Part shown: piece by piece, positions 7,451 through 51,598 of the stretch
Layout of the letters: every line of letters begins with the position of its first letter
How positions within the stretch are numbered: the first letter of the stretch is position 1
Assembly (NCBI GenBank): GCA_030867685.1
Contig: JAQOWU010000001.1
Span: 1,054,001-1,115,855, forward strand
Direction of reading: 5' to 3'
Length of the DNA stretch: 61,855 nucleotides
Origin: Wickerhamiella versatilis
Taxonomy: Eukaryota
Notes under the pieces: model-generated
Told to the model about the DNA's origin: nothing
Databases searched by the model: none
What the model saw: only the letters and a program-made list of their open reading frames with translations
Position numbers and translations under genes: made by a program

Positions 7451-8069
7451 TAATTATATTGAATATTAAGTATATTTATCCCACTTAACTCTTTTCTTTG
7501 TGACCCATGGCTCCTTCAGCCATGCAAAATAGCCCAATCTAGTTGGGCAAAGCAAAATAGCCTACTTCTTTGATAATTACTTGGAGCAATTGACTGTGGT
7601 TCTGACAGCGTATGTTACACTAAATTATTTGGTTGCGTGAATGAGAATGGCGCTAGTTGTGGTGCAGTCCTGGACCTTCGGCATGGACTGCTGTCTAATG
7701 CAAACATTTATCTACTGAAATGGAGTTATTTCATCGTATATTGATTGCAATATTCTCTCATATGACTTTTAGCACCAGTTAATCAGTCCGTTAACGGTTG
7801 AACGGGAAAGATACTCCTGTTTATGGGGTTGCTTTGTCATAATATACTCTGAAAGGAGGTGGTTTATTCAAAGCAAACGTTTGGGGACCTACTACGTTTC
7901 CAAGAATGCTTTAGTGTTTTCTAATAAAATTGTGGCTCTTGATTATACAGATAATGTCAACCTTGAGGCTGAGTAAATTGTTAGAGGAATGTCGTGATCA
8001 GCTTACTCAGTATCCCTGCTGCGTCGTCGGAGACAAACTTTATCAACTACTTTTGTCGGTGCCGCTCAA

Positions 8070-10064
8070 ATGGCAGAGCAGACCTTGGAAAAAAGTAGGC
8101 AAAAGAGAAATCGTGCTTCGCTAGCCTGTGATAAGTGTCGCGAAAGAAAAGTGCGCTGTGACTCTGCTCGCCCCAGGTGCAACCAATGTTGTCGGTCTGG
8201 GTTCTCCTGCACTTACAAAGTGAATCAGGGCACGGTAAAGCATCCTTCAACTCACAAACGTACAGAAAGACCTGATATTTACACCCGTGTTCAGCGGCTC
8301 GAACACTTAGTTGACGATATTATGCAGAACTCAAACATGGGGTCTACAGCAGTTTCTGGCTCTCTAGAAAGAGATTCAAACCAGCTCGAAGAATCAAACA
8401 GACCTTTATTTGGAGATTCAACTGTGAATGACCAAATAAAAGATATGAGAGCTCTCGAATTCCAACTCACAGTAGAAGGGAGAGATCACAGGCCCCCACT
8501 CTACAGCTACTCGATTCTGGGAATGTTGGCGACAGCGCAGAATCTTCAATTAATTGGAAATAGAATCGGTCAGCCTGATATGCCTCAAAAACTTATGTCC
8601 AGCATTCAAAGAAGCCACAGAGCGCACGAGGATCGAAAAAAGGCTTTGTTTCGGCAGCAACCAGCTGAACATTCATTGCTAGATGCTGATTTGAAATCAT
8701 TCTGCCAAAGACATTTTCATACACTTGGTTCCGACTACATATACGCTATCTTAACTCCAGAAGAATCTGATTATGCTTTCAGGAATGATTCTGGCATGTC
8801 AGCCATGATAGAACCCTTGGTTGTTCTCCTTGTGATATGTCACATGCGCTTTGTGGGAAATACCCATGGTATCTCAGAAGAACTGTTAGAACAACAGACG
8901 GTAGTCGCGTTTATGCATGCAACAAGACATTGGGCATTGAGCGGTCTTTTGCCATGTAGTTCCGGTCTATTCCGCTCACTTGTTTTTTATGCATTGGTCA
9001 CACTATTGTTCACGCCTCTATCACAGGACTTTCGGGCTCTGGCAGTTGCTCATTCTGCTGGGCATCAGTTGGGTGTAGATGATATGGAATACTGTCAGGC
9101 ACATGATCAGTCGGTCTGGAAACGAAATATAATTGTTTGGAATATCTTGAGAGAACTTGATAGTAACATATCTCTAAGTGCGTCCCAGCCACCAGGAGTT
9201 CGTGTTTACGAGAACTCAAAGATTTCACCAAATTTGTCATTAAGAAGCGACTCCGACCTAAAGATCCAGTTGTACCAATGGCGACTTTGTGAAATTTATG
9301 AAAAATGTTACAAAGAAGTGTTCAGCAGAGAAGCCCTCAAGAAATCCCATCGAAATATTTTCGAAAATATTCTTCGGCTAGATGGAGAATTGGAAGTTTG
9401 GCGATCAGGACTACCTGATAGTATGACTACTCCGTCTGAAGATGGAATTTTTTATCTGGATAACACATCTACCTTACCACTGCCACCTATAGCTTCTTTT
9501 ATGCTATTGACGATGAACATGTCCTTTTTTGCACTTAAGGCGCAGCTCCATATTTTACCAGCTTTTGTCCGATCTTTTTTGAAGAACGTTGATGACGATG
9601 TTCTCCTGTCAAAAGCCTCAAAATCACCGATAATAGCATCAGAAGCTGCTCGAGACATATTTCGTCTGGCATTGTCCACCAAAAAAGCCTTGAAACACTT
9701 GCCGTTGTACCAATTCTGTGTTATTACAGCTCATCAAGTACTCTCCCTTTATTGCATGATGTTTCCTGGGAACGACAGCTTTTATAGAGACCTTAGTCTA
9801 TTGCTTGACGGTCCACAAGCGAGGGGCGCCACTCCTATAGTATTTGATGAGACTTTTGAAACAGTGAACGAAATACTCTCGCGGTTTCGTGAAGATGTAG
9901 TTCAGCAGGGTCATTCTTCCGGTGGGGGTAATACGACTACCACACACCCCATGGGTAATCCCCTGTTAGCTGAGGGGCAACCACCTTCAAATCTCGCACC
10001 TTGGTTCGATATTGAGCCGACTACCTTTGATCAATTACCTGTGGACTCGTGTCAAGCAATGTGA
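8070..10064 (+). CDS. Zn(II)2Cys6 fungal transcription factor
   Basis: ACDKCRERKVRCDSARPRCNQCCRSGFSC, followed by a coiled coil (RVQRLEHLV) and a fungal TF middle region. Confidence 0.93.
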   Translation: MAEQTLEKSRQKRNRASLACDKCRERKVRCDSARPRCNQCCRSGFSCTYKVNQGTVKHPSTHKRTERPDIYTRVQRLEHLVDDIMQNSNMGSTAVSGSLERDSNQLEESNRPLFGDSTVNDQIKDMRALEFQLTVEGRDHRPPLYSYSILGMLATAQNLQLIGNRIGQPDMPQKLMSSIQRSHRAHEDRKKALFRQQPAEHSLLDADLKSFCQRHFHTLGSDYIYAILTPEESDYAFRNDSGMSAMIEPLVVLLVICHMRFVGNTHGISEELLEQQTVVAFMHATRHWALSGLLPCSSGLFRSLVFYALVTLLFTPLSQDFRALAVAHSAGHQLGVDDMEYCQAHDQSVWKRNIIVWNILRELDSNISLSASQPPGVRVYENSKISPNLSLRSDSDLKIQLYQWRLCEIYEKCYKEVFSREALKKSHRNIFENILRLDGELEVWRSGLPDSMTTPSEDGIFYLDNTSTLPLPPIASFMLLTMNMSFFALKAQLHILPAFVRSFLKNVDDDVLLSKASKSPIIASEAARDIFRLALSTKKALKHLPLYQFCVITAHQVLSLYCMMFPGNDSFYRDLSLLLDGPQARGATPIVFDETFETVNEILSRFREDVVQQGHSSGGGNTTTTHPMGNPLLAEGQPPSNLAPWFDIEPTTFDQLPVDSCQAM

Positions 10065-51072: not shown

Positions 51073-51598
51073 AACCTTACTTTATAGTGAGTAAAAACGC
51101 AAATATTAATCTCTAGTCTGCTTATTCGCCTAATCTCTATCGATGGTGCAACAACATGTGATTTGACATGCGTGATGACTTACCATGGTCTATCTATGTG
51201 ATAGCACTTACGAACGGAGAAATGGTCAAGCAATTAGGTCTGAAATAATTACTAGCAACCCGATGAGTTGAGTGGTTACCCTCTCAATATTAAGTTTTTT
51301 CTTCTTTATCACCCTGCCGTGAAAACCTTCTAGTCCATCTGAGCAGACATGCCAGTATTACTGGTGTTTGGTAAGTGCAATGCGGTATCATTTGATGGTT
51401 TAAATGCTATTTAAATGGCGTGAGTTCTAATCAGTAAGATAAGCCGCATTCTCGTGCAGGAAGTAGTTATCATTATGTCTACTTCACTACCTTAGGCTGC
51501 CTGGGCGATGCACGGTAGCTTTTGTCGTGGTGGGTTACCAATGAATGTATTTCGGGCAATATTTTATATCTATACAAAGTACAGGTCTATTCCGCAGT

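Follow-up and report, generated by a model that had tools for sequence, protein, structure and literature searches.

Interstitial telomeric pieces are in themselves an ordinary and known phenomenon. In Saccharomyces cerevisiae, TG1-3 tracts lie between shared X and Y' elements (the X-TG1-3-Y' arrangement), and short conserved telomere-like motifs in yeast promoters are the sites of Rap1 and other general regulatory factors. For mammals, two studies describe telomerase-mediated insertion of telomeric repeats at double-strand breaks, including that of the TERC-ITS among the interstitial telomeric sequences (ITS) (PMC2246262, PMC8537989). Here we describe nine short pieces of a 41-nt presumed telomere unit, dispersed in the intergenic DNA of a 61,855-bp stretch of the yeast Wickerhamiella versatilis (GenBank assembly GCA_030867685.1, contig JAQOWU010000001.1, positions 1,054,001 to 1,115,855; hereafter the window), which ends in a tandem array of that same unit. 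We consider the chances about even that the pieces are short ITS derived from DNA ends that were extended by telomerase and later joined to other DNA.

The pieces had been listed in an initial annotation of the window, by hand alignment to the terminal unit, and all nine were found to match with exactly the identities claimed (Table 1), which amounts to 78-100% identity over 19-41 nt. In a blastn-short search of window positions 1-61600 with the tripled unit, 11 matches scored at least 13, 8 at least 15, 7 at least 17 and 6 at least 20, while 100 shuffled units gave means of 0.62, 0.10, 0 and 0 and maxima of 3, 1, 0 and 0 at the same thresholds. The list would have fallen, according to its makers, if shuffled units matched as often as the real one, and at a score of at least 15 the shuffles match far less often (the count of 8 becomes 9 when positions 7539-7568, with a score of 20, are separated from the merged neighbour at 7522-7536). 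Similarly, a 25-nt core (unit positions 3-27) was found with at most 6 mismatches at five sites, versus a mean of 0.02 in 200 shuffles, and 9-mers of the unit occur 72 times, where 200 shuffles averaged 19 and reached 47 at most. The window appears to be a compact fungal chromosome arm of the budding-yeast type, in which 27 open reading frames (ORFs) of at least 150 amino acids span 63% of the sequence, and all nine sites avoid these ORFs, as had been annotated (chance 0.367^9 = 1.2e-4).

Table 1. Copies of the 41-bp unit in the window and the terminal array (an arrow marks a copy that runs through unit position 41; the match in the initial annotation is given with its coordinates where these differ)
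Feature	Window position	Strand	Unit positions	Match to unit	Initial annotation	Divergence (%)	Remarks
Half copy	7522..7536	+	15-29	14/15			Directly 5' of site 1; nhmmer E=0.6 alone
Site 1	7539..7568	+	4-33	25/30	7542-7568, 23/27	17	
Site 2	10141..10167	+	27->12	24/27	24/27	11	Only copy with its 3' end outside unit positions 23-33
Possible copy	12916..12940	+	core	17/25			Very worn; paralogue of the site 9 locus; missed by nhmmer
Site 3	17789..17811	-	11-33	20/23	17792-17811, 18/20	13	
Site 4	26215..26236	+	5-26	21/22	21/22	4.5	Within the 958-bp strain-variable stretch 26134-27091
Site 5	29923..29963	+	27->26	32/41	29936-29963, 24/28	22	Full unit length
Site 6	30103..30134	+	33->23	29/32	29/32	9	
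Site 7	33560..33585	-	3-28	26/26	26/26	0	Exact
Site 8, long form	36059..36114	+	28->31		36096-36114 (core), 17/19	10.5 (core)	Rearranged, with a repeated GCAAGATA(G/A) piece; nhmmer model 3-46, E=3.9e-4
Possible old full-length copy	42658..42696	+	~31->28				nhmmer E=0.18, 8.0 bits versus best of 7.1 bits in 5 shuffles; not significant alone
Site 9	51481..51519	+	29->26	31/39	31/39	20.5	
Terminal tandem array	61630..61855	+		98%			5.5 copies of the 41-bp unit; TRF score 445; presumed telomere

The TGGTTGG-bearing strand of the terminal array runs 5' to 3' towards the chromosome end. For a comparison between strains, contigs of four public runs (X3, X8, X19 and X20) were set against window positions 17001-37000; the strains in these runs include some of ~0.5% and some of ~6% divergence. 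Summed over contigs, the depth of the unit base at position 30124 was 22230 versus ~220 for single-copy DNA in X3, 4928 versus 61 in X8 and 5806 versus 18 in X19, or ~80-330 unit equivalents per genome in these three runs. We treat the array as a presumed telomere because it is terminal and because its unit reaches ~80-330 times the single-copy depth, which would fit short telomeres on a genome of ~10 Mb. In run X20, whose label names a different organism, the depth of unit-like contigs at position 30124 is only ~3 times that of single-copy DNA (15 versus ~5), versus 80-330 times in the other three, and the telomere unit of this relative may be a different one, with some of the interstitial copies retained.

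The mismatches between the copies and the unit point to common descent. Of 35 mismatches 27 are transitions and 8 transversions, where unrelated sequence would give 1/3 transitions (P=1.4e-7); among strain differences in the same region ~62% are transitions (X19 counts). The pieces therefore descend from unit-like sequence by ordinary point mutation. Since divergence is lowest at site 7 (0%) and site 4 (4.5%) and highest at sites 9 and 5 (20.5-22%), the copies arose at different times, as their differing divergence had suggested before. Over the well-covered columns (unit positions 4-26) the mismatches are evenly spread, the longest mismatch-free run being 2 columns (P=0.97 under uniform spread), so that the pieces seem to decay in a neutral-looking manner, with no protected core. 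A G-to-A change at unit position 21 is common to site 1, its half copy and site 4, and the same base is absent from one unit of the terminal array; an earlier variant of the template or a hot spot of copying could each account for this.

The pieces had also been described as starting at different phases of the unit, and this was true of their 5' starts and not of their 3' ends. Taken in order of the sites, the 5' starts fall at unit positions 4, 27, 11, 5, 27, 33, 3, 13 and 29 and are scattered (R=0.10, P=0.92), whereas the 3' ends fall at 33, 12, 33, 26, 26, 23, 28, 31 and 26 and are clustered (R=0.68, P=0.011), the zone of the cluster being unit positions 23-33. All nine copies can be fitted unwrapped into a single linear 48-column frame (41 nt + 7) that starts at unit position 27, passes 41 and ends at 33. 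If phases are random and lengths are kept, the probability that some rotation gives such a fit is P=0.015; it becomes 0.022 when site 5 is called shorter, 0.003 when site 8 is taken in its long form and 0.002 when the two weak copies are added. The difference between 5' and 3' ends does not come from faster change of unit positions 27-41, because that part matches the unit well where it precedes the core, as in sites 2, 5, 6 and 9; 3' of the core it is never seen. The inner segments of the two rearranged loci (sites 1 and 8) end at 29 and 25, within the same zone, and apart from these two no copy is longer than one unit.

The template in yeast telomerase RNA consists of the unit plus an annealing part of 1-10 nt (PMC8211666), and synthesis halts at a template boundary element (PMC9504884). 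The linear frame of the copies, one unit with a 7-nt overlap, has the anatomy of such a template, and its match to the actual template is a prediction. We therefore offer, tentatively and with well under even confidence, the more specific proposal that the scars are the products of a single round of telomerase and reveal a template start at ~27, a boundary at ~33 and an annealing repeat of ~7 nt.

Under the broader proposal of telomerase-extended ends, telomerase is the copying enzyme that we infer. DNA ends in dispensable non-coding subtelomeric DNA would have been extended by it at different times, extension beginning wherever an end paired with the RNA template and running to the 5' boundary of the template. 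Mostly there would have been one round of copying, with a faulty second round in two cases (sites 1 and 8). The extended end would then have been joined to other DNA rather than becoming a lasting telomere, either as a rejoined internal break or as a truncated chromosome end that later captured distal DNA, and the scars would thereafter have decayed as neutral sequence. The earlier suggestion of a repeated insertion of template-derived sequence over time is borne out by the spread of divergence (0-22%), by the excess of transitions (27/35) and by the single, template-like linear frame.

In this respect the pieces resemble the short ITS of mammals, which are likewise internal pieces of telomere repeat of varied ages and in neutral decay, and which are attributed to telomerase acting in break repair (PMC2246262, PMC8537989). 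Unlike these, which have a 6-nt unit, tracts of many units and little phase information, the pieces described here derive from a 41-nt unit, are at most about one template long and fit one frame. A flank copied from the telomerase RNA beside the template, the mark of the TERC-ITS type, was not found at any of the sites, where the 5' and 3' flanking sequences are mutually dissimilar, and no orthologous empty site was seen among the strain differences listed. There is also a likeness to the SiRTAs (sites of repair-associated telomere addition) and TG1-3 tracts of S. cerevisiae, which are telomere-like, near ends, mostly oriented like the telomere and possibly vestiges of old telomeres or seeds of new ones (PMC10055226). 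Unlike SiRTAs, which are defined by Cdc13 binding and stimulated telomere addition, the pieces here are known from sequence alone.

A second source of such pieces could be former chromosome ends: truncation, full healing of the broken end by a telomere, addition of distal DNA and shrinkage of the array below one unit by recombination would leave relics of this kind. Orientation speaks for this possibility, seven of the nine secure copies (P=0.18), and nine of eleven when both weaker copies are counted (P=0.065), being oriented like the terminal array, and telomere-like tracts in the subtelomeres of S. cerevisiae are oriented like the telomere too (PMC10055226). The bias favours events on centromere-side ends and is not significant. 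Also in line with former ends are the traces of more than one unit at sites 1 and 8, and the clustering of 3' ends would find an explanation too, provided that natural ends terminate at that boundary of the template. The region moreover has the character of a strain-variable subtelomere with presence and absence of genes. Site 4, for instance, is missing in X19 and in one minor contig of X3, where it falls within a 958-bp difference (joint 26133->27092, with 3 bp of microhomology). On the other hand, two full units are kept by none of the nine copies (or of 13 candidates), the youngest included (0% and 4.5% divergence), and divergence shows no gradient with distance from the end, two observations that speak against simple stepwise outward growth; two copies, moreover, are inverted. 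A tract of several units between shared subtelomeric elements was likewise not seen in the window, where, unlike the S. cerevisiae tracts between X and Y', the pieces lie between unique genes and have unique flanks. Nor are the sites closer than chance to strain-variable breakpoints: two of six lie within 100 bp of one, versus 1.76 expected for random intergenic positions (P=0.56). This result, from the one test that was run, also lends no support to the earlier idea that the pieces mark the junctions at which the region was assembled. We regard former ends as an unlikely source of the pieces.

Around sites 4 and 5 the other runs differ from the window in several further ways. Within the strain-variable segment 26134-28213, individual contigs skip 26134-27091 (the 958 bp), 26851-28212 or 26914-27921, the latter two skips removing a DUF4334/GXWXG gene (27273-27992), and one contig joins position 29649 back to 26799. 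A contig of the ~6%-diverged X19 spans both sites 5 and 6 (29854-30224). The exact 26-mer of site 7 is present in 5 contigs of X3, 6 of X8 and 4 to 6 of X19, and 8 to 14 contigs match site 6 in each of these three runs. These numbers, of contigs that passed the matching filter, are far lower than the density of copies in the window would predict genome-wide and hint that copies may be concentrated near chromosome ends.

Selection for a function was considered as well. The pieces could be working sites, bound by a telomere-repeat-binding protein (Rap1-, Tbf1- or Tay1-like) as a silencer, insulator or roadblock, or they could be back-up telomere seeds in the manner of SiRTAs. They are indeed strictly intergenic, five copies follow a stop codon at a distance of 38-199 bp, which would suit a roadblock, the exact 26-nt copy (site 7) is 39-59 bp away from two CACGTG promoter motifs, and the orientation bias is like that of SiRTAs in the subtelomeres of S. 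cerevisiae (PMC10055226). The absence of an invariant core counts against such a role, no mismatch-free run exceeding 2 columns, as does the near-disjointness of some copies: site 2 (27->12) overlaps site 3 (11-33) by only ~2 unit positions and the core of site 8 by none. In sites 5 and 9 the similarity to the unit extends over 39-41 nt, well beyond a typical footprint, and divergence of up to 22% comes with a transition bias of the neutral type. Gene context does not favour promoters either. Among ten loci none is divergent (2.6 expected, P=0.05), three are convergent (3'-3') and seven tandem, five of these seven being closer to the stop codon than to the ATG; the pieces thus lie in terminator-side DNA as often as in promoter DNA. 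They share with the sites of Rap1 and other general regulatory factors that they are telomere-like and intergenic, and unlike them they have no common core, extend up to 41 nt and show no promoter bias. Binding sites for the repeat-binding protein, one of the origins proposed in the initial annotation, consequently fare badly here, and we judge selected working sites to be quite unlikely.

A tiny dispersed element had been proposed too, and more generally the pieces could be remnants of some small mobile element, or of the end of a known transposon or long terminal repeat (LTR), that resembles or has seeded the terminal repeat. Copies that are truncated at the 5' side and have a common 3' end do look like retro-copies. 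The 300-bp flanks of the nine sites have nothing in common, however, and self-comparison of the window gives a single off-diagonal match, a block of 59 bp. Terminal inverted repeats were not found, nor were target-site duplications that are consistent across the sites, an 8-bp direct repeat close to site 5 being explicable by chance, and pieces of 41-48 bp are too short to encode anything. An Rfam search of the window returned one 5S gene only, with no telomerase RNA or other family at the sites. Fixed ends, duplicated targets and shared flanks, the signs of a MITE, a solo LTR or a transposon end, were thus all looked for at the sites and not seen, and a mobile element seems highly improbable. 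A larger repeat family was rejected for the same dissimilarity of flanks, the 59-bp block excepted.

Several observations weigh against telomerase-extended ends as the source of the pieces, or against the template frame in particular. There are only nine secure copies, from one window, and the frame statistic (P=0.015) was chosen after the alignment had been seen. Site 2 ends at unit position 12, and the worn and doubtful copy at 52672-52723 would extend beyond the boundary of the frame. At sites 6 and 7, contigs that stem from other loci or strains leave the unit at ~17, 21, 26 and 28; half of these positions fall within the zone, which is mixed support. A by-eye alignment in the style of Candida, of TGGTTGGACAATG in the unit to a GGTGTACGGATG core (from the table of PMC7857110), does not obviously place the boundary at 26-33. 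A precise empty site was not seen among the differences listed for the contigs of other strains, site 4 being lost only within the 958-bp difference. Rejoined breaks predict equal orientations, and seven of nine copies point like the telomere, an excess that is not significant. Finally, an internalised telomere that ended at the template boundary and then collapsed by recombination between repeats would leave the same structure.

Apart from the nine sites, the window holds weaker candidates. The half copy together with site 1 reads as ~1.5 units with roughly 12 bases missing between them. The worn copy at 12916-12940 is supported only by a 59-bp flank that it has in common with site 9: the two blocks (12984-13040 and 51558-51616) are 83% identical (E=8e-8), both are in gene-end regions and each lies ~40 bp 3' of a worn unit copy, and they may represent a small segmental duplication of ~150 bp or some shared element. 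An nhmmer profile built from the nine copies found nothing further in the window clearly above shuffle controls, and the candidate copies at 52672-52723 and 54391-54407 are indistinguishable from chance. A 21-nt degenerate core was also searched for in collections that apparently do not include this yeast; there was one match among metagenome contigs (an AT-rich contig without similarity to the window, judged to be chance), one among genome contigs (a Staphylococcaceae metagenome-assembled genome, taken as chance) and none among viral contigs. Two simple-sequence runs lie near the copies, (TC)15 at 7421-7451, ~70 bp from site 1, and (AT)10 at 33596-33615, 10 bp from site 7. Such runs are break-prone and would fit an origin in break repair, though two cases prove nothing.

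The remainder of the window encodes, for instance, Zn2Cys6 regulators, an alternative oxidase and MFS transporters, as well as a run of genes of the sulfur-scavenging type (two TauD, luciferase-like monooxygenases, old-yellow-enzyme fusions and an arylsulfotransferase). The old-yellow-enzyme domain fusions are of two kinds, at 48667-51072 (-) and 30663-33071 (+), with FMO-like and luciferase-like monooxygenase partners. An intact ORF of the bacterial LysR type, with helix-turn-helix and substrate-binding domains, is located on this yeast chromosome arm at 13334-14284 (-) and is probably a transferred gene. The motif CACGTG occurs 18 times (e.g. at 2209, 5629, 30585, 33501, 33521, 39323, 42749, 48023, 48042 and 55162), 13 of these being intergenic, and many occurrences precede the ATG of a gene (TauD, monooxygenase, transporter and others) by 60-400 bp. 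We take this distribution to resemble the signal of a sulfur regulon of the Cbf1/Met4 type. A link between these motifs and the pieces of the telomere unit was rejected, the two being close to each other at site 7 only. A complete 5S rRNA gene (Rfam RF00001, 77.6 bits, model 1-120) is found alone in a 2.4-kb intergenic gap at 52955-53075 (-), ~9 kb from the chromosome end; as it is solitary, the 5S genes of this yeast are at least partly dispersed.

At 41 nt, the unit ranks with the longest telomere motifs recorded in yeasts. In PMC7857110 the long units include those of Pichia norvegensis (43 nt, among the longest) and Kodamaea ohmeri (33 nt), so that the 41-nt unit belongs to the same length class, and by an alignment made by eye only it has a stretch AGAT..CCC..TTCACTA in common with the motifs of Kodamaea and Candida restingae (PMC7857110). 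It was not found in the yeast telomere table in parts 1-2 of the supplement of that paper (0 matches for five 11-12-mers of the unit), nor in the main text of PMC12449055, whose supplement could list it, and a literature text search retrieved neither of two 17-mers of the unit.

Whereas units of 6-8 nt tell little about the origin of an ITS, a 41-nt unit makes each scar informative about phase, and this phase-resolved pattern of template length is what is new here. If the pattern fails, the pieces are ordinary decaying relics of telomeres. If it is true, the start and the stop of synthesis are recorded in each scar, and the subtelomeres of this yeast would be a fossil record of single-round telomerase products, from which template boundaries could be read in genomes and which would provide a dated series of breaks in a fast-changing subtelomere rich in transferred genes. 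Should it hold genome-wide and be joined by a matching template, it would be direct sequence evidence that the telomerase of a yeast has acted on non-telomeric ends in an abortive or single-round manner. It would then connect telomerase repeatedly to the repair of subtelomeric breaks in a fungus, an involvement that has so far been proposed for mammals.

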